From: a bacterium | GTDB taxonomy: Bacteria; Patescibacteriota; Minisyncoccia; Phycocordibacterales; UBA9973 | DNA: 64,000 nucleotides | Assembly: GCA_037200905.1 (NCBI GenBank) | Contig: JBBCGN010000005.1 | Coordinates: forward strand, 29,535-93,534 | Direction: 5' to 3' | Shown here: piece by piece, positions 4,473 to 30,292 of the stretch | Numbering within the stretch: the first letter of the stretch is position 1 | Layout: every line of letters starts with the position of its first letter | The notes under the pieces: model-generated | Told to the model about the DNA's origin: nothing | Seen by the model: only the letters and a program-made list of their open reading frames with translations | Database searches by the model: none | Program-made: the position numbers and the translations under genes

Positions 4473-5070
4473 CTAAATAGTCCACGTCCAAGACGCAAAT
4501 TTGCTAATTTGGAATAAGAAAGCCCCCGCTATGGCGGGGGCTTCGGCTTTCGTGTAAATCACTTCGTCCGTCGGTGTGTCGGCGGGCTTTTCTCTCTGTG
4601 CCGGCTCTGTGCTAATAACATCCTCCTTTTCTTTTGCGTCAGGCTTCAGCTGTGGCGATACGGTGATGACCAGGCTGTCCTTTCCCCGTGTCCAGTGGAA
4701 AATGAACTGAGTATCATCCTTCCATCGCGGATTGAGCTCCTCCCCGGACTCGGTCCAATGCGTGAAGATCTGGCCGTTCACCAGCCAGGTCTTCGGGTTA
4801 TGGAGCTTCTCATGCTGATACATGAAGTACTTCGGCGAGTACCAGAAGTAGAGTTCGCGCTTGCCGGCGATGTAGGCTTCCCAGCCGTTCGCTACCGAAA
4901 TCTTCGGCGAATCGGCTTTGGCCGGGTCGGCATACCGGACATTGTCCAGGCTTAATCTTTCAGTGTCTGCCTTCGTAGAAGGCAGGTGCATGCCTCCTTG
5001 GGCCCGGGCGGGGTTCACCGAGAATGCGATCAGTCCGAATGACAAGATACAGAGATTGCTTTCGTCTCAT
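4473..5070 (-). CDS. secreted hypothetical protein (paralogue of 5142..5607), one apparent frameshift near 5037
   Basis: ORF 4473..5045 plus an upstream ATG at 5070. Joining the frames gives a signal peptide MRRKQSLYLVI/GLIAFSVNPARAQ. It shares an ELYFWYSPKY-type block with the next gene. Confidence 0.55.
4521..4542. terminator. hairpin between convergent rpmA and the downstream minus-strand gene
   Basis: AGCCCCCGC-TATG-GCGGGGGCT is a perfect 9-bp GC stem. It lies within the last codons of the minus-strand ORF. Confidence 0.45.
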
Positions 5071-5141
5071 GGGCAAAGAAAAAGCCCCCTCTTTCGAAGG
5101 GGCCGGTCGCACGACATCAGGGGCTTCGCGGTACATTTTTC

Positions 5142-5607
5142 TCATGCGAGCATCACTGCTTTGTCTTCGGGAGGAGCGGGAGCCGGGCCTTCATTCTCGT
5201 TCCCTTTCGGCCTGATGCGCTTCTTCTTCAGATGCCGGGGCAGCTTTTTGCCATGGATCTGTATGAGCATGATCTCCTTATGGCCCTGCCGCCAGATATA
5301 GACGCGCTCGGCGTCTGCCGGGCGCCCTTCGTCCGGAAACTGGATGCTGGTAAAGAGATGATAGCGCCGCCGCCCTACCAGAAAGCGCCTGTTGCCGAGG
5401 ACATACACGTATCGCATGGGGCCTTCCGCCGCTCTGGAGCTCGGACATGGTTTTCGCCGAGTACCAGAACGTGAGTTTCTTGCAGTCGATTTTCGGCTTC
5501 TTCGCGCTGTCTGCTCCCCTGCCGGGAGCGGCGGACAGCGCCTGCCCTCGGGCGAGCGATGCGGAAAGGATAAACAGCAAGGCGAGAAAAATCTTGAAAT
5601 TTTTCAT
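5142..5607 (-). CDS. secreted hypothetical protein (paralogue), apparent frameshift near 5420
   Basis: ORFs 5278..5685 and 5142..5417 join into one product. It starts MKNFKIFLALLFILSASLARGQ at 5607 and carries KLTFWYSAKT, compare ELYFWYSPKY in the neighbouring gene. Confidence 0.45.
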
Positions 5608-5706
5608 GTCGCAGGGTTTTAAAGGTGGAGAATGTTGTTTCTTTATTTTGCAAAAAACAAAATAAGGTCTTTCGACCTTATTCATACCACATATCAGTTA
5701 GAAAGG

Positions 5707-6151
5707 CTAGGCCCGCTCGATGACCAGCTTGAAGGATGATTTCTTGCCCTTGATATCGATTGGGATGTCGTGCTCGCCCACTTCTTTGATAGGCTTTTCG
5801 ATCTTGAGGAATTCTTCGCTGATTTCCGCATGGTGCTGGGCATGCATGGCTTCCACGATTTCTTTCTCGTGCACGGCCCTTGAAGAGGTGGCCAGTCTCG
5901 TCGGCTTTCTCGGAGAGGGTCACCACCTTGTCCTTGATGGCTTCCAGGTTCTTCATGAGCAGGTCGTCGCGGACTTCCCGTTCAACCTTGATCTCCTTCT
6001 GGCGCAGTTCGAGGGCGGCGATGGATTTCACTGTGGCGAGCTCTGCGAACTTGCGCGGCAACAGGAAATTCATGGCGTAGCCATCATTCACTTCTTTGAC
6101 ATCGTATTTTCGGCCGACTCGCGGCACATCCTGCAGGAATATTACTTTCAT
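5707..6151 (-). CDS. rplI: 50S ribosomal protein L9, one apparent frameshift near 5877
   Basis: The N-terminus MKVIFLQDVPRVGRKYDVKEVNDGYAMNFLLPRKFAELAT is typical L9. After ...HLFKG the correct continuation AVHEKEIVEAMHAQHHAEISEEFLKIEKPIKEVGEHDIPIDIKGKKSSFKLVIERA* is in another frame. Confidence 0.85.
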
Positions 6152-6169
6152 ACTTCTATTTGTAGCTTT

Positions 6170-7417
6170 TTATTTGATCGCTGTCCAGTGCTGGAGCAGG
6201 TCTACGGCTTTGTCGAGCTGGGGGTCGCGCTTGGCGGCAGCATCGTCCTTGGTGAAGTCCACTTTGACGTCGGGAGTCAGGCCTTTCAAAGAAATGGATG
6301 TGCCGTTCGGGGTGAGCCACTTGGCCACGGTGATCTTGAAGAGCGTGTCGGGAGTAAGGTTGATGACTTCCTGCACCGAACCCTTGCCGTAGCTCTGCGT
6401 GCCGACCAGAATGGCTTTCTTCTGGTCCTGCATGGCGCCGGCCACGATCTCGGATGCGGAAGCGGAACCGCTGTCGATCAGGATGGCGAATTTCAGATTG
6501 TCACTGAAGATATCATAACCCTTGGAGCGATAGGTCTTCTCTTCCCCGCTCTTGCCGTGTCCTCGGTGACGATGGCCTTGCCGGTCGGCAGGAACCAGCT
6601 CGAGATGTCTACGGCCGCGTCGAGATAGCCGCCCGGATTGCCGCGGAGGTCGAGGACCAATTTATCGGTCTTTGCGGCGACGAATTTCTTCATGGCATCG
6701 CGGAAGAGCTGTGCGGAGTCGGACGAGAAGCTGTAGAGGCGGATGACGAAGACGCCGTCCTTGCGCATCTCGTGTCGATGGTCGGGATCTTGATGGTGTC
6801 GCGCACGACGGAAATCTCTACCGGCTCGGACTCGCCTTCGTGGAGGATGGTGAGCTTTACAGTGGTGCCCTTGTCGCCGCGGATGAGCTTGATGGCCTCG
6901 TCGATGGAAACGTCGGAAGTATATTTGTCGTCGATCTTCAGGACCATGTCTCCGCTCCGGATGCCGGCCTTTTCCGCAGGGGTATCCTTGAGCGGAGCGA
7001 TGACGGTCAGGATCTTGTCCTTGACCCCCACTTCCATGCCGATGCCGGTAAAATTGCCCGCGATATCCCCCTCGAAGACCTTGGCCTCGTCCGGCTTGAA
7101 AAAGACGCTGTACGGGTCGTTTAAAGAGCCTACAAGGCCCGAAATGGCCCCATAGATGCGTTCCTGGTCAGTTATGGCGCTGGCGCTCGGGTACTTCTCG
7201 TTGATGGTATTCCAGGCTCCCAGAAGGGGCCGAAGTCCGCGGTGGTGGCCACCTGCGGCTCCTTGTTCTCGATGCCGGTGACTTTCTCGATGGCCGAGCG
7301 GTGGGTGACGCCGACGTAGACGCCGAGGGCGAAAAAGGCGATCACGAGCAAAATGACCAGGCCCTTTTCCCTGCCCCGCAGCGGTTCGGCCGGCTTGTCC
7401 TTAATTTCGTTCTCCAT
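6170..7417 (-). CDS. ctpA: S41 carboxy-terminal processing protease (PDZ + S41), at least 3 apparent frameshifts
   Basis: ORFs 7172..7417, 6690..7037, 6493..6768 and 6170..6445 concatenate into one protein. It has an N-terminal TM, a PDZ domain (GIGMEVGVKD...PAEKAGIRSGDMVLKIDD), DLRGNPGGYL, and SGSASASEIVAGA...SYGKGSVQ. Confidence 0.82.
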
Positions 7418-10901: not shown

Positions 10902-11056
10902 GAGGCACAACAAGAAGAAACCCAGAAGAAATTCAGAGAAAAAAGAAAGGGCCTGGATTGAAATCCTGGCCCGTGCTAAATCCGTACCCTATGAAAGAAT
11001 TATTGCGTAGTTTTCTTTTAGCATCATAGCAGACCCGAGAGCGCTGTCAAGATGTG

Positions 11057-11456
11057 TTAGACCGGCTCGGCGCAGTGCGAGCAGCGCTTGGCCCCGATGG
11101 GAATCTCGGACAGGCACTCCGGACATTTCTTGGTAGTGGGATCTGCGGGCGGTTCTTTGCGGGAGCGCGCGATGAGCAGATTCATGGGCTTGACGACGAA
11201 GAAGAATATCGTAGCGGCGACGAGGATGAACGAAATGAGGGCGTTCAAGAAATGTCCGAACATGAAGGTGCTGCCGTGGACGGTGAAAGAGAGCCCGCTG
11301 AAGTCGGGAGTCTTGGCGATGGCGGAGATGAGCGGCGTGATGATATCCGAGGACGAGCGCGGAAACGACGGTGCCGAAGGCCGCGCCGACGACCACGCCC
11401 ACCGCGAGGTCCACGACATTGCCGCGAAGCAGGAACTGTTTGAAATCTTTAAGCAT
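11057..11456 (-). CDS. mscL: large-conductance mechanosensitive channel MscL with C-terminal zinc-ribbon-like tail, apparent frameshift near 11355
   Basis: [35 protein letters not shown] is the canonical MscL N-terminus. The continuation ...[10 protein letters not shown]...[24 protein letters not shown]... is in ORF 11057..11419. The tail reads [24 protein letters not shown]. Confidence 0.88.
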
Positions 11457-11805: not shown

Positions 11806-12747
11806 TTATAATTTCACGATGCTGTAGTCGTCGAACTGCACATCCATGAAATCCGTGCGGATGCCGCCATAGCCTGCGGCTTTGATCGGCGCGCCGCCGT
11901 AACTCTTGCCGTCGTCTTCGGCCTGGGCCGCCAAGACCCATTTGCCTGTGCGATCTTTGTCCACGTACAGCTTTATGGTGACTGTGCCATCGGCATTCGT
12001 CACCACAACGCTCCGCAACCCTATCCATGAATTTTCCGGCAAGAGGTTCGGATTTTTCTTGTTGTCGTACATACCCGGGAAAAGCGGCACGTATGCCATG
12101 GTGTAGTATGTCTTATCAATCTTCTTCTTTATGACCGCATAGCCGTCCACGCGGATGCCGGTGTAATAGAGATTGAACTCGTCCTGGTAGCGGTTGAAGA
12201 GCAGGAGGCCGTTCGAGGCGTTCCTGTTCGGGCTTGCGCTCAGGTTATCTTTCGTAATTTTAAAATACGCCTCTTGCTGCAGGTTCTGGAATTCCATCCG
12301 CGAGACCAGACGGAAAATATTCTGCGGATAATAGCCATTGTCCGTGTCGAGCGGATTTGAGGCGAGGAATGCCGTGCGGAAATAATCTTTTTCCGGCAAC
12401 GGTCCGGCCACGGTGCTCGCTATGCCGTTCTGGCTGTAGAAATATGCGCCCGAACCGATCCACCACTCCTTGCTCTTGCTTTCGCTGATGTCCCCTGTTT
12501 CGACCACAGTATAGCTCGTGCTGAAATCATCTAAAAATTTTGTAATGCTCGGTGCCGGCATCGGAGGAGTTGGTTTCGGTACGGATGAAGCAACGGGCGT
12601 AATGTCCGGCTCGCTCGGTGCCGTCGCAGGTTCGGTTACCGCATGTGGCGTTTCGAGCTGCGCTTTCATTTTGGAATTGACATACAGCCCCGCGAACGTA
12701 GCGACGGCTATGGCTAGAGCTGAGAAAAGAATAATCTTGTATTTCAT
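11806..12747 (-). CDS. secreted hypothetical protein, likely beta-sandwich, paralogous to the C-terminal modules of the upstream deacetylase
   Basis: ORF of 313 aa. It has a signal/TM MKYKIILFSALAIAVATFAGL and a P/T-rich linker. The C-terminal ...GYGGIRTDFMDVQFDDYSIVKL style resembles lectin/glucanase-like folds. This is a by-eye call only. Confidence 0.6.
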   Translation of the reverse strand: MKYKIILFSALAIAVATFAGLYVNSKMKAQLETPHAVTEPATAPSEPDITPVASSVPKPTPPMPAPSITKFLDDFSTSYTVVETGDISESKSKEWWIGSGAYFYSQNGIASTVAGPLPEKDYFRTAFLASNPLDTDNGYYPQNIFRLVSRMEFQNLQQEAYFKITKDNLSASPNRNASNGLLLFNRYQDEFNLYYTGIRVDGYAVIKKKIDKTYYTMAYVPLFPGMYDNKKNPNLLPENSWIGLRSVVVTNADGTVTIKLYVDKDRTGKWVLAAQAEDDGKSYGGAPIKAAGYGGIRTDFMDVQFDDYSIVKL

Positions 12748-12762
12748 CCTGATCTGATTCTA

Positions 12763-14843
12763 TCAGAATAGCCGAAGACTAGAAAGAAGTGACTTCGATG
12801 CTGTTGACCCTGAAATCAGCGATCTGTTCGTGCCGAAATCGATGCCTACCGAACCGTGTGCCGGTACTTTGCTGTCGCTCGAGTCGAGTATGATCTGGCC
12901 GTTGATGAGGCACTGCATGCGGGCGGCGCGCGATCTCATCGTGAAGTTCCATGGGTTGTATGAGTTTATCCTGACGTCTTTGTTTTCAGCCAATATCTCT
13001 TTTGTTCCTGCCACTACTTTGAACATTGTGACGTCCTTGCCATGATCCGTGAACGTACATGCGGTGTAGTTGTCGGCGTCTTGGTATCGGGTCATGAGCG
13101 TGAAGTCGCTCCTGCCGAGCCAGACGCCTGCAGTGACGGAATAGTCGTTCCACGGAGTGGAATTGTCGAGTATGGAGAAGCGGTTTGCTACCGTGGTCCA
13201 GTCGTATTTCTTCATGCCAGTCGAAACATACGGCATGGTCGGGTCGTCGTAGTATCCTTGCGCTTCGAGCTCGTTCGAAGAGTCACCTGCGGCAACGCTT
13301 GCTATTGGTACTGGCTGCAAGGCTTTTGGCTCCGCATCAAGCGAGCTGATAGTGAAGCTGTGAATGGTAGCATGCGCTTCTTTCGCGTCCCAGACGGAAA
13401 GGCCGCTTGTGCCGCGAGTGAGCGTGGTCGGTGCGCCGTTCGTGACAGTGACGCCGTTGAATGCAGCGCTGACGACGCCCCTCCAGATGCGGATAGAGAT
13501 GTCGGCCCTACTGACTGGCTTCGGCATGTCGTAGGAAGCGATAGTCCTCTCCTTGCCATTTACGCGTTCGATGAGGGACGCATATTTGTTGCCCCAGTCG
13601 AGAGCGATAAGGTTGTCCTCGTTCTTGTAGTACGCGAGGATTGATGTGGACTGCCCTTCTTCGCGGGTCACAGACATTTCTATGTCGTAATTCTTCCACT
13701 CTTCGTCGCCGATGAGCACGCGAGCAGAGGAATGGCAGGGCTCGAGATGAGGCTGATGCCGTTCGTGGTGTCGAGGTTGCCGTAGAGCAATTCAGTCTTG
13801 TTCTTTACCTGCATTGCATCTGCGGGGTTCGGGTACGACAGGTTCGGCTTGGTCGGCGCGAACTGATCGAGGGCGGTTTCAAGGTCGCTCGCGGTCATAT
13901 TCTTGACTTCGAGGCGCTTGATGTCGGTCTTGTCGGTATCTTTATAGTTATAAAAAGTGTCGAGGGCCTTGTTGTCCTTGTCACCTGCTTCGATGAAAGC
14001 CAGCCTGAAAGTTTCGGACACGACCTTCCTATTGAAAGCGCCGGCATCCGGATAGTTCGACTGATCGTCGTCGCCGTAGTGATTGAGCGGCACCGCGAAA
14101 TACTGGGCATCTATGCCGAGGTAATTCTTCAGGTCATGCAGATTGTTCAAATAGTCGAGGCTGACGCGCTGCTCGAAGTTTGCCACACTCTCGAGGTCCG
14201 TCGTCGGAGAATACAAACGTGAAGTGAGGTATACGCCGATATCGCCTTTCGCATCGTTGACGAATTTGTCGTGAGAGTTGCGGCCGTGCGCCTCTATCTC
14301 CCATCGGCCGGAATCGCGCATGTACTTGAGTTCGCTCCATGAGAGGAAGAACGGATCGTTTGAGAGCATGGCGGGGCGCAGTGACCGGGAATATGGTAGC
14401 CTTGAATCCGAGCTTCTTGAAGACTTCGTCAGAGGCGTAGAAGCTGTCACGTCGTCCGTCATCGAAGGTGATGATGACAGGCTTCGGAGGCAGTATGAAT
14501 TTTCCTTCTCGGAATGCGTCGTAGTCGGCGATAGATATGGTCTGATAGCCGTTGCGCTTGAGCATCTCCATCTGGGCGACGAAGTTCTCGCGCGTAGTAT
14601 TGGTGCCCAGATGCCCCGGCCGGCGATGATGCCGTGGTACATGAGTATCGGCACGCCTTGCGCGGGCGCGAGGTCAGAGACGTCTTCGGCGACGAGATCC
14701 TCGGGCGGGGTGTAGCTGTACGTATATGCGTGCGTGCGGATGGCGATGAGGAATTTCGTGGCGAGCGGAAAGAGGTATGTGACGATTCCCACCACGAGGG
14801 CGATGACTGCGAACAAATAAAAATATTTCTTATATGTTTTCAT
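12763..14843 (-). CDS. membrane-anchored polysaccharide deacetylase (NodB/CE4) fused to two beta-sandwich modules, at least 3 apparent frameshifts
   Basis: ORFs 13680..14843, 14134..14571 and 12763..13719 join into one product. It has an N-terminal TM, PILMYHGI, the NodB motif ITFDDGRRDSFY, and a tail continuing ...LISSPAIPLLA/LIGDEEWKNYDIEM... Confidence 0.7.
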
Positions 14844-14848
14844 GAAAT

Positions 14849-16080
14849 TTATCTGGTGCCCCAGCCGGTTTTCTTAAGGGTAAAAAGCGCGTACGGCATC
14901 TGCCACAGGAATACGGTGACGAACAGGAATGAGAAGAGCGGCATGTACATCCAGTTCTCGAGGCCGTGATAGACCCGCACGAAGAGCGCGAAGACGGTGC
15001 CGAGGAGCAGGAAGCCGCACATGAATACGAGGAAGAGCACCGGATTATGGGTGATGATACTGCGCGCGAGGATCACCGCAGCCAGTATCGGGCCGACGAT
15101 CGGGAAAGAAAAGTTCACATAGAAAGCGAAGCTCGCGAGCGGGTGGCGCTTTTTCCACATGAAGAGTCCTGCGAATGCGCCTTCGCGGATCCAGGATTTC
15201 TTCCAGCGGAGCTGCTGCTTGAGGTAGGTCTTGAATTTCTCTGGTACCGTCGTGGTGGCCTGTGCGGCCTGGCAGTAGACGATGTCCCAGCTCTTGCGGA
15301 GGACGTAGTTCGTCAGTCCGCGGTCGTCGCCGAAGGTAGATTTCGAGCCGAAGAACTTGTGCTCTCTCCAGGCCTCGACGAGGGGCTCGACCGCAGACTT
15401 GCGGTAGGCGCTGAAGCATCCCGGGCAGCAGGTTACTGATTGGTGCACGCTCTCGCTCGCCTTGTAGACGTCGAACGAGACGGCGTACTGGATGGACTGC
15501 ATCTTGGTGAGCAGGTCGCATTGATATTTTCCACTTTCGTGTTTCCGGCGACTGCGCCGACTTTCGGGTTGGCCATGAAGTGTTCTGCCAAATGACGGAT
15601 GCCGTCTACCGCGACGAAAGAGTCGGAGTCAATAAAGGTAACGATTTCGTATTTCGCTTCGTTGATGCCGACAGCCATGGCTTCACGCTTGCCGAGGTTT
15701 TTGGGGAACGAAATGACTTTTACATGTTCTGCGCCGTAGGTATCGCGGGCGCGGTGCATTTCCGCGAGAGTGCCGTCGGTCGAGCCGTCGTCGATGACGA
15801 TGCACTCGATGATGCCCTGGTATTCGCTTGCCATGGCAGTGGAAATAGTTTTGAAAATTCCTCCCTCTTCGTTTTTGCAGGCGATGACGACGGATACGTT
15901 CGGGTATTCGCTCGCGGAGTATACAGCGGTGTGGTCATCCTTATGGAGGTATGCGTATGGCAGGCGCGAGATCAGGAAGAGCGTCGCGATCAATCCGTAG
16001 ATAGTCCAGAACGAAGGCACGAGGGCCATGTTTGCGATGAAGACTACTTTGTACAGGATCAGTCCGGTCAGAAGGGGCAA
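14849..16080 (-). CDS. processive GT2 synthase of the hyaluronan-synthase/NodC/chitin-synthase type, one apparent frameshift near 15515
   Basis: ORFs 15433..16080 and 14849..15502 join. Motifs present: VVIACKNEE, VIDDGSTDGT, FIDSDSF, CCPGCFSAYRK, FGDDRGLTNY, and KQQLRWKKSWIRE (QxxRW). Several C-terminal TM helices follow. Confidence 0.8.
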
Positions 16081-16180
16081 GAAAGAAAAATCATGATGAA
16101 TGATTCCTTTACGATGCTGAAAACGCGGTCCCAGCCTGTGAAATTTTCTGTATTTTTAAGTATGTATGCTTTCATAAATA

Positions 16181-17427
16181 TTATCGGCCGATGCCTTTGT
16201 ATGATATGTCTGCCGCGACGAATTTATCCTTTGGCAGACAATTACGACCGTCGATGATGACACGTACGCCTTTGCTCATGAAATATTCGGGAGTGAGCTC
16301 TTTGAAGACTTTGTGAGCGGTAGGCGATGATTGACTACCTTTGCACCGAGCAGCGCGTCCTCGAGAGTCTTCGCGGTCGACTTGTCGAGCACGTACGGAT
16401 CGTACGAGGTGACATGCGCGCCGATTTCTTCCAGGTGCTCGATGATCTCGAATGACGGGCTCTCGCGGCAGTCTTCGATGTTCGCTTTGTATGCGAGGCC
16501 GAGGACGGTCACTTTCGTGTCCGCGATATCGACGCCAAGCTTCTCGAGTTCTTTGACCGCGAGGCCGACAGCGAACTTCGGCATGCCGTTGTTCACGGTG
16601 CGAGCAAGCGCAAGGAATTCATGGTTGAAGCCGTTCTGCTTTGCGTAATCGATCAAGTAGTACGGGTCGACCGGGATACAGTGTCCGCCGACGCCAGCGC
16701 CTGGGTAGTGAGCCATGAAGGCGAAAGGCTTGGTGGCAGAGCCGTTGATGACATTGACAACGTCGATGCCGAGCTTCGAGAATGACATGGCGAGCTCGTT
16801 CACGAATGCGATATTCACGTCACGGAAGGCATTTTCCACGATCTTTACGGATTCAGCTTCTTTGAGCGAACCCATTTCTTTCACTTCGCCGTCTATGATA
16901 GAGCGATAGAGTTCTGCGGCCATCTTGAGGCCGGCAGCATCGAGCGCGCCCACGACGCGAGGGATATTCCGGACGGTCCATTTCTCGTCGCCGGGATTGA
17001 TGCGTTCAGGACAGTGCGCGAGATAGAAATCTACGCCGGCTTTGAGGCCGGATTCTTTTTCGAGTATTGGCAGGGCGACTGTCTCGCAGACGCCCGGGTT
17101 CACCGTAGATTCGAGGACCACGAGCTGGCCCTTCGAGAGGTATTTGGCCACGCTTCGGCATGCGCCGACGACCGGTTCGAGATTAGGCAGCTTGGTGTCG
17201 TACACAGGAGTAGGTACGCAGATGATGATGGCAGCAGCATCCTTGATGGCACTGAAGTCATCTGTCACGGTGATCGGCGCATCTTTGAGCTCGGCGATCT
17301 TCTTCTGGCTGATTTCGACGCCGATGACATCGTAGCCCTTTTCGGCGGCGAGCAATGCCAAAGGCAGTCCGACGTATCCGAGGCCGACAATCGCGACTTT
17401 TTTGTTGTTCTCCATATTTTTCTCCAT
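16181..17427 (-). CDS. nucleotide-sugar dehydrogenase (UDP-glucose 6-dehydrogenase family), apparent frameshift near 16322
   Basis: VAIVGLGYVGLPLALLAAEKGYDV is a Rossmann motif, and GVGGHCIPVDPYYL carries the catalytic Cys. The true C-terminus AHKVFKELTPEYFMSKGVRVIIDGRNCLPKDKF...GIGR* is recovered in another frame. Confidence 0.82.
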
Positions 17428-17664: not shown

Positions 17665-19272
17665 ATGAAAAAAGTACAAGCACAACAAGAGACCGGGCAC
17701 GTAAACGTCTTTTTCTCTGCGTTCTTCAATATTCTGTGCATCCTTCTGGTGGTCGCCCTATCACTCTTGTTCCTGCGCTTCCTCTCAGCTATCTCTATGT
17801 GTTCTCATACCGCATGGTGGCCATCTTCCTGATCGCCATCTTCCTGTCGAACATCTTTGCGAAATTAATAAAGAACATCTCTCCCATTATGAAGAAAAAG
17901 CTCTTGTCTGACCGTACCGTCAAAATACTGACCTATATCGCCCTGTATGCCGTCCATGGGCTGGATCGTGGCGTCCGTATTCGTGCTCAAGGCCACCGAG
18001 GGTCAACCAGTTTCCCGTCCTTCGCGGGATCATCATACTCTTCGCGACCGTACTTCTGGCAAAATACTTCCTCTACATGATCGTCAGCCGTGGCACGACG
18101 TGGTGAATTTCTTCTATAACAAGAAGCATCGCGCCGAGATCGAGGCATACCGTCCGCTCGTCTCGGTGATGATACCCGCCTGGAACGAATCGCAGGGCAT
18201 CCTGAACACCATGAAGACGGTGCTCTTGAGCACGTACCGTAACATGGAGCTCGTGGTGGTGAACGACGGCTCGACGGACGACTCCGACAAGCTCATCAGG
18301 AATTTCCTCGCCGATTATGAGAGCTGGACGGACGGAGTGAACGACATCCGCATCATTTACGACTACAAGTCGAACGGCGGCAAGGGCCGGGCGCTCAACC
18401 GCGCCATCGAGCTCTCGCACGGCGACATCATCATCTCGATCGACGCCGATTGCATCGTGCTGCCGGATACCATCGAGAACTTCGTATCTTGCTTTTCCAA
18501 TCCGCGCGTCATGGCCGCTGTCGGCAACGTGAAGATCGGCAATACCACAAAGATCATCGGCGTCATCCAGTACCTGGAATACCTGTTCTCGTTCTATTTC
18601 AAGAAGGCCGAGTCCATCTTGAACACCATCTACATCATCGGAGGCGCGGCCGGCGCCTTCGCCGCGAAGTCTTCGAGAAGCTCGGCGTCTACAATACCAC
18701 CAACATCACCGAGGACATCGACTTGTCCGTGCGCATCCAGGACGCCGGCATGAAGATCGTCTATGCCGACCGGGCCGTGGTGTTTACCGAAGGCGCGAAC
18801 GACATCGCCGGCCTGCGCAAGCAGCGCTTCCGCTGGAAAGCTCGGCCGGTTCACCACGTTCCGCGACTTCAAGCATCTGTTCTTCAGCACCGACAAGAAG
18901 CACAACAAGATACTGACGTGGCTCATCCTGCCGCTCGCCATCTTCGGCGAGATGCAGATATCGCTCGAGGTCTTCTTCCTGGCCTTCCTGTACCTCTACG
19001 CCTTCCTGACGAACGATTTCACCTCGTTCCTGTCCGGCGTGGCCGTAGTCGCTACCATCTTCTTCGTGCAGATGTTCTTCGACGACAGGAAGAATCACTC
19101 GTTCTCCTTCTATATCCTCGCGCCCATCGGCTGGCTGCTCTTCTACCTGACCACGTTCATCGAGTGGAGCGCCTTCTTCGCGTCCATCAAGTCGACGATG
19201 CTCCACAAGATGCCGAAGTGGCAGCGCTGGAAGCCGCGAGGGCCTGGCCAAGGACCTGATACAAAATTATGA
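17665..19272 (+). CDS. GT2 polysaccharide synthase (PgaC/IcaA-like), about 4 apparent frameshifts
   Basis: Fragments 17665.., 17736..18080, 17947..18753, 18450.. and 18763..19272 join. Motifs present: SVMIPAWNES, VVNDGSTDDS, SIDADC, GGAAGAF(RREVFEKLG), QRFRWK (QxxRW), and a C-terminal TM bundle. Confidence 0.72.
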
Positions 19273-20940
19273 CAAGAAACTCATCGTTCAAGAATAAGAT
19301 AAGTGATTTCCGGCCGCGCTTCCGCGAAGGGAAATTCTTCAAGGACAGGAAGAATGTCTTTCTCTTTTCGTGCGCCATGCTGGCGGTCATCATCGTGGCC
19401 CTCGTCATCGGCTTGCGGCATGAAAATCCTGGCATCGTGGCCACGAACGAAGGCGATCCTGCAGACCTCGCCCTCGCCCAGTTCCAGGACAAGAAGACGA
19501 GTACGCCGTCGACCGCGATAGACACGAGCGCATCAGCGAACAAGGGCAAGAAAGGCAAGGCGAATTCGGCAGCTCCCAAACGCGCCGCGGCCGGCAGCCT
19601 GCGCCCTGTCGCTCTCGCTCTCGCCCCGGCAGAAGGCTATCGTCTCCGGCGGAAATATCGACTACGCCATGACGCTCACGAACAGCGGCTCCGTGGCCTG
19701 CCAGAATGCCAGCATCTCCTCTATTATGCCGATAACGAGACATTCGTGTCCGCGAGCCCTGCCGCTACTTCGTCCAATTATTATTGGAGCATCGGCACGC
19801 TGGCGGGCGGCGCCCAGAAAACTTTTTCTATGACTACTACCAGCAATGATTCCGGCGCAACGAGCGTGGATACCGAAGCCTGCGCCACTGCGGACAACGG
19901 CCAGGATTCCTGTTCCGATTCTTCCGTCGCTTTCGGCAGCGCCGTAGTGGCAAATACCGATGCTCCCGCGGTCGCAAAGACCGGCGGCATCACCTTGCCG
20001 AAACTTTCCGGACATATTCCCTGCCAAGCAAACGGCTGCACCTGTCGCTCTTGGTGACAGAGAATACGGCACATGGGTCTGGGTCACGCCCGACGCGCAT
20101 CACCAAGACGTATGCGAATACCGTCGTCGATGCCGCCGCGGCGAACAGGATCAATGCCATATACGTGACGTTTGACGACTATCTTGAGATCAACGCCCTG
20201 CCTGCCGGCGCGAACAAGGATGCGAAGATAAAAGCGTATTCGGATGCCGTGCAGAGCTTCGTCGAGATCGCCAGAGCCAAAGGCATCGCTGTCGATGCCG
20301 AGGCCGGTGCTCGCGACTGGGGCGAGCCGGGAAAACCACAGCAAGGCTTTTGCCATCATCGACTACGTAGCTTCGTACAATGCGACCCACCCGAATGCTC
20401 CGATCCGCGGCTTCCAGTTCGATGTCGAGTCGTACCTCCTGCCTTCATATGACAATGACAAGGCCGGCACGCTGACGAAATTCGTCTCGCTCGTCGCGGA
20501 GACGGCCGCGCACATGAGCGGCATGAACTGCGCTTTGCCGTCGTCCTTCCGCACTTCTACGACGGGGCCATCGGCTGGACGCCGAGCCTGACGTATGCCG
20601 GCACTTCAGGCCATGCATTCGAACAGGTGCTCAATATCCTCGACAAGCGCGCCCGACAGTTCCATCATCATCATGGCGTACAGAAACTTTTCAGAAGGTA
20701 CCAACGGTTCGATCGATCTCTCGAACGCGAAGTAAATGAAGCATCAGGCGCGGGGCATACCACGCGCATCATCGTGGCTCAGGAGACGGGTAATGTCGAT
20801 CCGGACTATGTCACTTTTTATGGCATGACAAAAAATCAGTATCTCGCCAAGTGAATCTGATCATCAATGCATTCAGCGGCCAGTCCAGATTCGGAGGCAT
20901 CGCCGTGCACTATATCGATCCGTTTCTCGAGCTCAACTAG
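19269..20940 (+). CDS. membrane-anchored surface protein: DUF11-like repeat + TIM-barrel-like putative glycoside hydrolase domain; at least 6 apparent frameshifts
   Basis: Fragments 19269.., 20051.., 20244.., 20627.. and a final piece ending ...GGIAVHYIDPFLELN* join. One segment (TLTNSGSVACQNASIS..YYADNETFVSASP...YYWSIGTLAGGAQKTF) looks like a DUF11 repeat. The domain call for the remainder is weak. Confidence 0.5.
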
Positions 20941-29001: not shown

Positions 29002-30292
29002 GAAAAAGAATAATTTCCAACTGATTATGATAGCCGTATTCATGGTCGCCGCGCTGATCGGCATGCTGGTGTTCGCCGGCAAGATCAAGATCGGCAAGGA
29101 TCCGGCCGGCTCGGGCGGCACGGTCATCCTCTGGGGGACGGCCAATGGCGGCGATCTCAGCAAGGCCATCGAGGATTTCAACCGCGATAATCCGGCCTTC
29201 ACCGTCAAGTACGTCCAGAAGAACGCCGATACCTTCGACCAGGACCTCCTGTCCGCCCTCGCTTCCGGCGTCGGGCCCGACATATTCTTCCTGCCCGACA
29301 CCCTGGCCTACAGCTACCGCAACAGGATCACCAGGGTGCCGTATACGACCTATCCGCTTTCCGCGTACAAGACGAAATTCGTCGGCGCGGGGGAAGTCTT
29401 CCTGACGTCGCAGGGCATCCTGGCGTTCCCGATGTCCGTCGATCCCATGGTCATGTACTACAACAGGAGCATGCTCGACGCGAACGGCATCGTCTATCCG
29501 CCGCAGTATTGGGACGAATTTCCCAATCTCGTGAGCATTCTCACCAAGAAGGACGACGCCAAGAAGATCATCTCGAGCGCCGTGGCTCTCGGGCAGTTTT
29601 CCAACGTCGCGCACGCCAAGGATATCCTGTCCACGCTCTTCATGCAGGCCGGCAGCCCCATCGTCACCGAACAGAACGGCCAGTTCGTCTCCGCCATGCT
29701 TGATGCTCCCGACTCCGCCCGGCTCGCCGACATCCTCAATTTCTATACGCGATTCACCGATCCCGTCAACGCGAATTATTCGTGGAACAGATCCTTGCAG
29801 GATTCGCGGAGCGCCTTCAGCGCCGAGACCCTCGCGTTCTATTTCGGCTACGCGAGCGAGCTGCCGTATCTCTTGAACAAGAATCCCAATCAGAACTTCC
29901 TGGTGGCGCCGATGCCCCAGCTCCGCAACAGCAATACCAAGATCACCGAAGGCCATGTCACCGGCCTCGCCGTCTCGGCGTTCTCGCAGAATTTCACTTC
30001 GGCTTTCACCGCCGCGAGCCTGATGTCCACCGGCGACTTCGCCGCTGCCTACGCCCAGGCCACCGGCAGCGTGCCGGTCAGGCGCGACCTGCTCGTCGGG
30101 AAGCCGAGCGACGCGTATACGCCGACGTTCTACAATTCCGCGCTCTTCGCCAAAAGCTGGCTCGATCCGGCGCCCGTCACCTCTGACGCCATATTCTCCG
30201 GCATGATCGACGCCATACTGGCCAATACCCTCAGCGCCGATCAGGCCATCAAGGATGCCGCCAACAAGCTAGCCTTCGCCCTTGCCAAATAG
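29000..30292 (+). CDS. extracellular solute-binding protein (ABC-transporter family 1, sugar-type), no cognate permease/ATPase nearby
   Basis: Intact ORF of 430 aa. It has an N-terminal TM/signal and sugar-SBP-like blocks such as ILWGTANGGDLSKAIEDFNRDNPAFTVKYVQ...DIFFLPD. This is a by-eye family call. Confidence 0.72.
   Translation: MKKNNFQLIMIAVFMVAALIGMLVFAGKIKIGKDPAGSGGTVILWGTANGGDLSKAIEDFNRDNPAFTVKYVQKNADTFDQDLLSALASGVGPDIFFLPDTLAYSYRNRITRVPYTTYPLSAYKTKFVGAGEVFLTSQGILAFPMSVDPMVMYYNRSMLDANGIVYPPQYWDEFPNLVSILTKKDDAKKIISSAVALGQFSNVAHAKDILSTLFMQAGSPIVTEQNGQFVSAMLDAPDSARLADILNFYTRFTDPVNANYSWNRSLQDSRSAFSAETLAFYFGYASELPYLLNKNPNQNFLVAPMPQLRNSNTKITEGHVTGLAVSAFSQNFTSAFTAASLMSTGDFAAAYAQATGSVPVRRDLLVGKPSDAYTPTFYNSALFAKSWLDPAPVTSDAIFSGMIDAILANTLSADQAIKDAANKLAFALAK

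Follow-up and report, generated by a model that had tools for sequence, protein, structure and literature searches.

Which polymer does a bacterium make when a single membrane glycosyltransferase is encoded next to a nucleotide-sugar dehydrogenase, and can the two enzymes be read as a hyaluronan-type pair? This question is raised by a locus in a 64,000-nucleotide stretch of DNA (the window; positions 29,535 to 93,534 of contig JBBCGN010000005.1, assembly GCA_037200905.1, here G000) from a member of the Patescibacteriota, or candidate phyla radiation (CPR). The original prediction, made from the sequence of the window, described a glycosyltransferase family 2 (GT2) enzyme and an adjacent dehydrogenase as a hasA-hasB-like pair that makes a glucuronic acid-containing polymer. 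We find that the two genes belong to a longer operon and, on balance and with some reserve, favor its interpretation as a co-transcribed CPR exopolysaccharide operon, the product being a polymer of N-acetylglucosamine (GlcNAc) and its C6-oxidized counterpart (GlcNAcA) that is partly de-N-acetylated outside the cell, and the many frame breaks in the deposited sequence being errors of the assembly.

Results and Discussion

The minus strand of the window carries four co-oriented genes (Table 1), which encode a nucleotide-sugar 6-dehydrogenase, the GT2, a carbohydrate esterase family 4 (CE4) polysaccharide deacetylase and a conserved exported protein, so that the dehydrogenase and GT2 genes form part of a co-oriented operon reaching down to position 11806. 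The dehydrogenase gene lies directly upstream of GT2 in identical orientation, as had been predicted, and the two are closely coupled in translation: the dehydrogenase stop codon (16181-16183) and the GT2 start codon (ATG at 16175) are separated by 5 nucleotides, and for this reason the two genes are almost certainly co-transcribed.

The GT2 is a synthase of the hyaluronan synthase type

Two open reading frames (ORFs) on the minus strand, 15433-16080 and 14849-15502, are the halves of one GT2. The halves match the Pfam families Glycos_transf_2 and Chitin_synth_2, and of the 395 positions in the NCBIfam NodC profile they jointly cover 13-394. All five motifs quoted in the original prediction (DGSTDGT, DSD, CCPGCFSAYRK, GDDRGLTN and KQQLRWKKSW) are found in the translations, the C-terminal end reads WGTR, and in alignments the protein has the catalytic motifs of class I hyaluronan synthase (HAS), namely DxD, GDDR, QxxRW and WGTR. 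Scores on the named profiles amount to 74.6 and 82.5 bits for the two halves on NodC (TIGR04242, equivalog cut-off 550) and to 97.9 bits for the N-terminal and 21.5 bits for the C-terminal half on PgaC_IcaA (TIGR03937, cut-off 422). Beyond a CCCC run at its upstream end the GT2 frame stays open up to the ATG at 16175, and we therefore take the gene to comprise 14849-16175 and to encode about 442 amino acids, a length that fits that of intact homologues (383-676, mostly 410-460 amino acids). The earlier estimate of about 410 amino acids, near streptococcal HAS, was thus only roughly right, the actual gene being somewhat longer.

For structural comparison we used P0001, a close intact homologue that is 75% identical to the window GT2 over 404 columns. 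Compared by sequence with solved structures, P0001 scores 115 bits with Xenopus HAS1 (XlHAS1), 88 bits with Chlorella-virus HAS (CvHAS) and about 31 bits with chitin synthases. Its AlphaFold model (12-sequence alignment, pLDDT 82, pTM 0.82) features two N-terminal helices, a GT-A domain and about four C-terminal helices, and aligns with XlHAS1 and CvHAS over its whole length (about 420-450 columns, 19-23% identity) at TM scores of 0.70-0.75, with BcsA (0.59) and chitin synthases (about 0.5) ranking lower in a structure library that holds no solved NodC or PgaC. These sequence and fold matches bear out the assignment to the HAS/NodC-type membrane synthases, and lead us to predict that the GT2 acts in the manner of class I HAS, as a processive synthase that forms its own channel, while standing outside the HasA and NodC clades.

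This placement comes from a careful tree of 35 rows with PgaC as the outgroup, composed without Streptococcus pyogenes HasA, Cps3S, vertebrate HAS and fungal chitin-synthase-like proteins. In it, a clade with support 100/99 on a long stem unites the HasA family of Bacillaceae and Streptococcus (6 rows) with Rhizobium NodC and a synthase from a Lactococcus plasmid. The family of the window GT2 (25 rows, 89/75) is excluded from this clade, and the reading of the GT2 as HasA-type is therefore not upheld by phylogeny; a Paenibacillus GT2 joins the HasA/NodC side weakly (82/71). A quick tree of 49 rows agrees and puts PgaC, BcsA and a second GT2 of the window further out; both trees were flagged for long branches.

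The family is large. The C-terminal GT2 half matches 736 longer proteins (E ≤ 0.001), of which the best 120 are up to 79% identical to it and bear names such as "hyaluronan synthase" (JGI) or "glycosyltransferase" of Pacebacteria or Moranbacteria (NCBI). A locus scan restricted to one genome per species gave 110 loci, and the best 80 of these, which were retained, represent many CPR lineages as well as Methylococcales, Actinomycetota, Holophaga, Nitrospirota, Nitrospinota, Verrucomicrobiota and others. In 24 genomes of the same genus no close GT2 homologue was found, just weak matches to other GT2s, and a relative from the same order (G036) has an intact, 39%-identical GT2 copy within an intact dehydrogenase-GT2-CE4 set of the same gene order. 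Judged by sequence comparison only, the family appears to be widespread (Patescibacteria, methanotrophs, Actinomycetota, Acidobacteriota, Nitrospirota, Paenibacillus) and mis-annotated, and its product is possibly new; the pipeline label "hyaluronan synthase" is probably incorrect and ought not to be carried over to further records. The literature that we searched, including searches for hyaluronan synthase in Patescibacteria/CPR and for NodC or chitin synthase in Methylococcales, yielded no description of this bacterial GT2 family.

One further member of the family is found in the Frankia symbiont of Coriaria arborea (Frankia cluster-2; locus L053), where a 724-amino-acid protein is encoded with a CE4 gene downstream. 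It groups with the Actinomycetota copies, not with NodC, and is therefore distinct from the canonical Frankia nodABC, which has reportedly been found in related Frankia.

The dehydrogenase belongs with the UDP-N-acetylhexosamine enzymes

All three UDPG_MGDP_dh domains (PF03721, PF00984 and PF03720) are present in the dehydrogenase, and its ORF contains the motif GGHCIPVDP, the Cys of which we take to be the catalytic residue of the family. Among NCBIfam profiles the archaeal UDP-N-acetylmannosamine (UDP-ManNAc) dehydrogenase scores highest (288 bits), followed by TviB (233 bits, equivalog cut-off 592), WecC (218) and, lower down, the UDP-glucose dehydrogenases AglM (152) and TuaD (135). The ranking of structures in the PDB is headed by 4r16, annotated as a UDP-ManNAcA dehydrogenase (244 bits), Cap5O (213), 3g79 (199) and CalS8 (179), and UDP-glucose dehydrogenases all score at most 114 bits. 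Homologues encoded on plasmids, at 37-39% identity, bear the annotation tviB.

A dehydrogenase tree of 30 rows (quick method, SH-aLRT support only, composed without WbpA, WbpO and Cap5O sequences) separates these enzymes in the same manner. The UDP-glucose-type clade consists of Escherichia coli Ugd, the dehydrogenase of the pXO1 has operon and the Lactococcus and Streptomyces enzymes, and all dehydrogenases linked to the GT2 family fall on the other side of a branch with support 99. The 12 CPR rows (that of the window and 11 from GT2 loci) form one clade (99), sister (97) to a group of the plasmid TviB, a Paenibacillus enzyme and a methanotroph dehydrogenase (L049), with the WecC proteins of E. 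coli and Citrobacter placed apart. The prediction had cast this enzyme as HasB, the supplier of UDP-glucuronic acid (UDP-GlcA), and that reading fails by the test put forward with the prediction itself, the enzyme clustering with the UDP-N-acetylhexosamine (UDP-HexNAc) dehydrogenases. We assign it, by sequence, to that clade, closest to the TviB-type UDP-GlcNAc 6-dehydrogenases. UDP-GlcNAc is more likely than UDP-ManNAc to be its substrate, because of the TviB affinity and because no 2-epimerase over cut-off was found in the assembly.

Deacetylase and lectin-fold partner

The CE4 assignment rests on a match to PF01522 (Polysacc_deac_1) on the frame 14134-14571, with 25 bits against a cut-off of 23.1 (the G036 orthologue scores 64.6 bits), and the translation includes the motif TFDDG. 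NCBIfam also gives PgaB N-terminal matches. In homologues, the CE4 and beta-sandwich portions are encoded by a single gene of 516-827 amino acids.

The protein encoded by the last gene of the operon begins with a membrane helix and has a disordered linker; its extracytoplasmic part is a beta-sandwich of the concanavalin-like type, similar to PF06439 and carbohydrate-binding module family 66 (CBM66). A Pfam search with this protein gave no match, and it is without a Pfam family of its own; its Atlas neighbors carry PF06439 (3-keto-disaccharide-hydrolase domain). It is 40-56% identical to 21 aligned homologues, four of these from loci labeled Methylococcales or proteobacterium. The nearest solved folds to its model (pLDDT 89) in a Foldseek search are CBM66 and L-type lectins. 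A lyase fold would have favored a uronic acid polymer, and we therefore tested this assignment; it is unsupported, the fold being lectin- or CBM-like and the polysaccharide lyase family 14 (PL14) alginate lyase appearing just at rank 48 with a TM score of 0.29. From its model the protein thus looks like a sugar-binding module and not a lyase.

Conservation of the cassette and supply of substrates

The flanks of the 80 retained loci (70 with at least 1.5 kb upstream, 67 with at least 3.5 kb downstream) show which of these genes travel together. A CE4 deacetylase is encoded in the flank of 65 loci, in 42 of them directly downstream of GT2, and a homologue of the lectin-fold protein in 39. The latter is the best conserved partner of the GT2, with 34-58% identity (tblastn, loci of several phyla) as against 24-40% for CE4. 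A dehydrogenase is found at 22 of the 80 loci, on the same strand and directly upstream in 14, and for 10 of the 22 the identity to the window enzyme is 50% or more. Of the 23 dehydrogenase matches, one of them partial, each has a better score with TviB, WecC or the enzyme of the window than with Ugd/HasB; the genuine has-type pairs that we fetched (pXO1 hasA-galU-dehydrogenase, Lactococcus, Streptomyces) all come with Ugd-type enzymes.

Cultured organisms that carry members of the cassette include Paenibacillus cellulositrophicus, Methylobacter, Methylovulum and Holophaga foetida, so that the product can be determined at the bench. On the P. cellulositrophicus megaplasmid (L091, NZ_CP045296.1, 258305-273462) the gene order is CE4, dehydrogenase, GT2, CE4 and glycoside hydrolase family 18 (GH18), the GT2 having 625 amino acids and belonging to the same superfamily. 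The dehydrogenase (locus positions 5013-6275) is unannotated in the PLSDB table but is present as an open, 421-codon stop-to-stop frame. As GH18 is a chitinase family, its presence in this cluster fits a GlcNAc backbone.

The only sugar-1-phosphate nucleotidyltransferase found in G000 is GlmU-N-terminal-like (168 bits), and a GlmM-like mutase is present as well (176 bits). In this assembly, which is 72% complete so that absence is weak evidence, we found no match for GalU, no UDPG_MGDP_dh dehydrogenase (such as Ugd) besides the one of the operon, and no UDP-GlcNAc 2-epimerase (PF02350) over cut-off. The check on UDP-GlcNAc and UDP-Glc supply that had been proposed with the prediction therefore came out on one side only, with a GlmU-like enzyme found and GalU not found.

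Proposed function of the operon

Gene order and coupling, the family of each protein, the conservation of the cassette and the patches of indels in the assembly are shown directly by the comparisons above. For the substrates, linkage and processivity of the synthase, and for the role of the lectin-fold protein, we infer the following scheme, a HexNAc polymer made from UDP-GlcNAc being what gene context, dehydrogenase type and supply enzymes together point to. UDP-GlcNAc, the sole nucleotide sugar for which a supply enzyme is seen in the assembly, would be oxidized at C6 by the dehydrogenase to yield UDP-GlcNAcA. The HAS-like GT2, a membrane protein whose GT-A domain would face the cytoplasm, would polymerize HexNAc from UDP-GlcNAc and, with the dehydrogenase present, most likely from UDP-GlcNAcA too, and would export the growing chain by way of a transmembrane channel that it forms itself. 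Once outside, the polymer would lose some of its N-acetyl groups to the CE4 domain, and the lectin-fold domains, both those fused to CE4 and that of the separate membrane-anchored protein, may keep it on the cell surface or organize it there. Such a product would be an acidic, partly deacetylated, chitin-like polymer and not hyaluronan.

We put forward only tentatively that the GT2 family as a whole makes a new bacterial glycosaminoglycan-like polymer with GlcNAcA, for example alternating GlcNAc-GlcNAcA, which would be deacetylated in part by the linked CE4 and held at the surface by the lectin-fold protein; in CPR bacteria, such a polymer could be a surface matrix for host attachment. If the polymer does contain GlcNAcA, it would represent a new class of acidic, chitin-like exopolysaccharide. 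Genome-reduced CPR bacteria would, should the proposed function prove true, be investing in a surface polymer built from UDP-GlcNAc.

Comparison with known systems

The closest parallel in gene content comes from eukaryotes and their viruses. In some fungi, chloroviruses and a phaeovirus, the accessible portions of three papers describe a conserved, horizontally transferred cluster of a GT2 resembling chitin synthase (CHS) or HAS, a UDP-GlcNAc 6-dehydrogenase (UNGD) and a polysaccharide deacetylase, the GT2s being of the CV and ESV classes ("chs8"), and conclude from the arrangement that the synthase is supplied by the dehydrogenase (PMC4059230; PMC5122149; PMC7053769). As far as these portions go, the clusters share with the window operon the three activities side by side, a dehydrogenase of the UNGD type and not of the Ugd type, and a product that is uncharacterized there too (PMC4059230; PMC5122149; PMC7053769). 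They differ in that the viral proteins are only distant relatives of the bacterial family, the aligned identity being 15% for EsV-1-84 and for two proteins of chloroviruses as against 22-23% for CvHAS, and in that the bacterial cassette adds the lectin-fold membrane protein. The likeness looks like a parallel in design, orthology not being shown by trees that hold no fungal sequence. Should the GT2 family indeed make a polymer with GlcNAcA, its cassette would be a prokaryotic counterpart of the CHS-like/UNGD/deacetylase cluster of fungi and algal viruses and a tractable bacterial model for the fungal and chlorovirus one.

Class I HAS and the has operon share with the window genes the GT2 motif set, a length of about 420-450 amino acids, N- and C-terminal membrane helices and the best structural match, as well as a synthase adjoining a nucleotide-sugar 6-dehydrogenase. 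Unlike the has operon (as on Bacillus pXO1, hasA-galU-dehydrogenase), the window has a GT2 outside the HasA clade, a dehydrogenase of the UDP-HexNAc type and a CE4 deacetylase, and no GalU was found in the assembly; we know of no role for a CE4 deacetylase with hyaluronan. The NodC-NodB system resembles the operon in that the GT2 aligns along the entire NodC profile, a CE4 gene is adjacent and GlcNAc is the likely substrate. It differs in the low scores of the GT2 halves (75 and 82 bits against a cut-off of 550), in the grouping of NodC with HasA and in the deacetylase, which in the window is a large multidomain exported protein of about 690 amino acids compared to the 216 of NodB. No NodA-like ORF is present in the operon, the one region searched for it.

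With the poly-N-acetylglucosamine (PNAG) systems PgaC/IcaA and PgaB/IcaB, the operon shares the combination of a synthase and an extracytoplasmic CE4 enzyme, and the N-terminal GT2 half reaches 98 bits on PgaC_IcaA; the C-terminal half, however, hardly matches (21 bits), and PgaC, which has a long branch, falls in the outgroup position. The PgaC-like gene of the window is instead the second, divergent GT2 (17947-19272). TviB/WbpA-type dehydrogenases, finally, are the nearest named clade in the tree (sister, SH-aLRT 97), but the window enzyme scores 233 bits against a cut-off of 592, and the operon is without a TviC-like 4-epimerase and a TviE-type glycosyltransferase family 4 enzyme.

Frame breaks and quality of the assembly

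The original prediction allowed for a single frameshift in GT2. This did not hold: GT2 alone has two breaks, and with two in the dehydrogenase and about three in CE4 the operon carries at least seven, every one of them in a homopolymer of 2-4 nucleotides (Table 1). The break at 16074-16077 cuts off the true GT2 N-terminus (MKAYILKNTENF...), and the two extra bases in the dehydrogenase, mapped against G036, put its last approximately 45 codons out of frame. Translation through the breaks revealed no in-frame stop, and the residues invariant in the GT2 family are all retained. At the 15516 break, closer homologues have N/D-LLTKMQ, and the W suggested there by G036 was therefore dropped.

We surveyed frame changes in G000 by comparison with 200 kb of G007, the closest relative found (84% GyrA identity), taking the 81 of 178 ORFs (of at least 120 amino acids) that have a match of at least 45% identity and dropping the other 97. 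Over 26,469 aligned residues, 20 frame changes were found in 15 of the 81 conserved proteins, in clusters, and the genes affected include those of ATP synthase alpha, beta and gamma, topoisomerase I (TopA) and DnaK. Since essential genes that no living cell can have lost are broken likewise, we take these changes to be assembly errors. The rpoB and rpoC profiles had no match anywhere in G000, so part of the genome is truly missing and not merely broken; 72% completeness as a sign of frameshifts was dropped as an argument, with rpoB and rpoC simply missing from the assembly.

Sequencing runs X1, X2 and X5 were consulted as Logan contigs, which have a depth of about 2-4, with depth and uncovered stretches excluded as evidence. 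X1 contains 85% of the sampled words of the stretch and, among the pieces listed, its contigs end or start at 14370, 14610, 15516, 16076, 16333 and 19234, all of them break sites. One contig of X2, a run on the same sample, agrees with the window as far as 16323; both extra bases are absent from its next 17 letters, which restores the dehydrogenase frame (...VVIIATAHKVFKELTPEYF...) in agreement with the intact G036 orthologue. X5 gave just short conserved pieces of 90-95% identity from other organisms. The frame breaks are thus probably consensus errors of the assembly, and the operon is probably intact in the cell. Because the assembly has patches of homopolymer indels, apparent pseudogenes in G000 should not be taken at face value and call for read-level confirmation.

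Table 1. Operon genes and frame breaks, in window coordinates unless a contig of G000 is given
Feature	Position	Strand	Basis or remarks
Nucleotide-sugar 6-dehydrogenase	16181..17427	-	about 414 aa read through; Pfam, NCBIfam and PDB rankings, tree
GT2, putative processive synthase of the HAS/NodC/chitin-synthase superfamily	14849..16175	-	about 442 aa; motifs, profiles, trees, model
CE4 polysaccharide deacetylase with C-terminal beta-sandwich domains	12763..14843	-	about 690 aa; Pfam, NCBIfam, tblastn frame map
Conserved partner protein, intact	11806..12747	-	313 aa; homologues, model, Foldseek
GT2 frame break 1	15516..15517		one base missing between ...NINA and LLTKMQ...; X1 contigs end and begin here
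GT2 frame break 2	16074..16077		CCCC run (GGGG on the plus strand); X1 contig ends at 16076
Dehydrogenase frame breaks	16324..16332		two extra single bases (GG, TT on the plus strand), at about 16324 and about 16332
CE4 frame breaks, about 3	~14604-14610, ~14370-14380, ~13735-13745	-	tblastn with L011, L014, L017 and L068
Frame-change clusters in G000 outside the window	C4:52.9-61.4 kb, C4:12.6-16.3 kb, C5:100.3-102.2 kb		ATP synthase alpha/beta/gamma, topoisomerase I, DnaK (3 changes)

Alternative explanations

A number of observations weigh against an intact operon for a GlcNAc/GlcNAcA polymer. To our knowledge the product chemistry is known for no member of the GT2 family, and the statement that the synthase is closest to HAS by fold is biased by the make-up of the structure library. 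In both NCBIfam and the PDB, the best named match of the dehydrogenase bears a UDP-ManNAc dehydrogenase annotation, and two UDP-GlcNAc 2-epimerases occur in the relative G036; glmS was not found in G000, and the absence of galU, ugd and wecB counts for little because even rpoB and rpoC are missing from so incomplete an assembly. Furthermore, the fetched flanks of 58 of the 80 loci hold no dehydrogenase, so the synthase needs no neighboring one and the dehydrogenase could feed another pathway. The synthase would then make plain chitin or a chito-oligosaccharide that CE4 trims (compare nodBC and pgaBC), with the dehydrogenase serving some other glycan and being a neighbor by operon packing. GT2 and CE4 indeed are the conserved core (65 of 80 loci, against 22 with a dehydrogenase), the closest homologues L011, L014 and L016 are without a dehydrogenase in their 6-kb flanks, the NodC profile is aligned end to end and the Paenibacillus cluster has GH18. 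We nevertheless consider a plain chitin product rather doubtful in view of the 5 nucleotides between dehydrogenase stop and GT2 start, of the 14 loci from several phyla with a same-clade dehydrogenase directly upstream, and of this minimal genome, in which no other HexNAcA-using pathway was seen, though no systematic search was made; the same linkage of genes occurs in the fungal and viral triad, as far as the accessible part of its description shows (PMC4059230). A true has-like system, in which the GT2 alternates GlcNAc with GlcA to make hyaluronan and the dehydrogenase produces UDP-GlcA, strikes us as very improbable. Among solved structures class I HAS come closest in both sequence and fold, JGI names relatives of the GT2 "hyaluronan synthase" and the motif set is common to GT2 and HasA, but the dehydrogenase falls outside the Ugd/HasB clade, the GT2 outside the HasA+NodC clade, GalU was not found in the 72% complete assembly and the genuine has-type pairs examined all bear Ugd-type dehydrogenases. 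With a UDP-HexNAc-type dehydrogenase, a GT2 outside the HasA clade and no GalU, the hasA-hasB-like operon and its glucuronic acid polymer are not borne out.

The frameshifts might also be real and the cluster a decaying set of pseudogenes in this strain. At least seven breaks over about 12.8-17.4 kb, with more in the neighboring GT2 to 19.3 kb, would agree with this, as would the GT2 being an accessory gene, given that no close homologue was found in the 24 same-genus genomes. Elsewhere in the window gyrA, clpB, infB, typA, alaS and others are open, and since these housekeeping genes are intact the breaks are locally concentrated, which is also compatible with local decay; the frame-restoring X2 contig, moreover, is a single one of depth about 2.4, and a related or sister strain is a possible source of it. 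Breaks are likewise locally concentrated around the ATP synthase genes of contig 4. Against decay, the ATP synthase operon, DnaK and TopA show like clusters of frame changes elsewhere in the assembly. The changes in the operon are short-homopolymer indels alone, nonsense codons are absent and every residue invariant in the family is retained, X1 contigs stop at the break sites and the X2 contig has the unbroken dehydrogenase sequence. Decay therefore appears improbable to us, and an intact exopolysaccharide operon read through assembly errors is the interpretation that we retain.

Neighboring genes

Divergent from the dehydrogenase, the second GT2 of the window (17947-19272, plus strand) is spread over three overlapping frames and so has at least two breaks. 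X1 contigs end at 18337, 18660 and 18838, and X2 differs by one base at 19234. Its N-terminal part scores 105 bits on PgaC_IcaA, and the quick tree groups it with PgaC by way of long branches. The ORFs that follow it (19269-20452, plus strand) overlap in frame and have a weak DUF11 match (18.7 bits), and look like a surface protein gene likewise hit by frame breaks. On the other side, immediately downstream of the operon, a 155-amino-acid ORF (10989-11456, minus strand) begins with a match to the MscL profile that is limited to its positions 1-35 out of 123, which probably marks another frame break.

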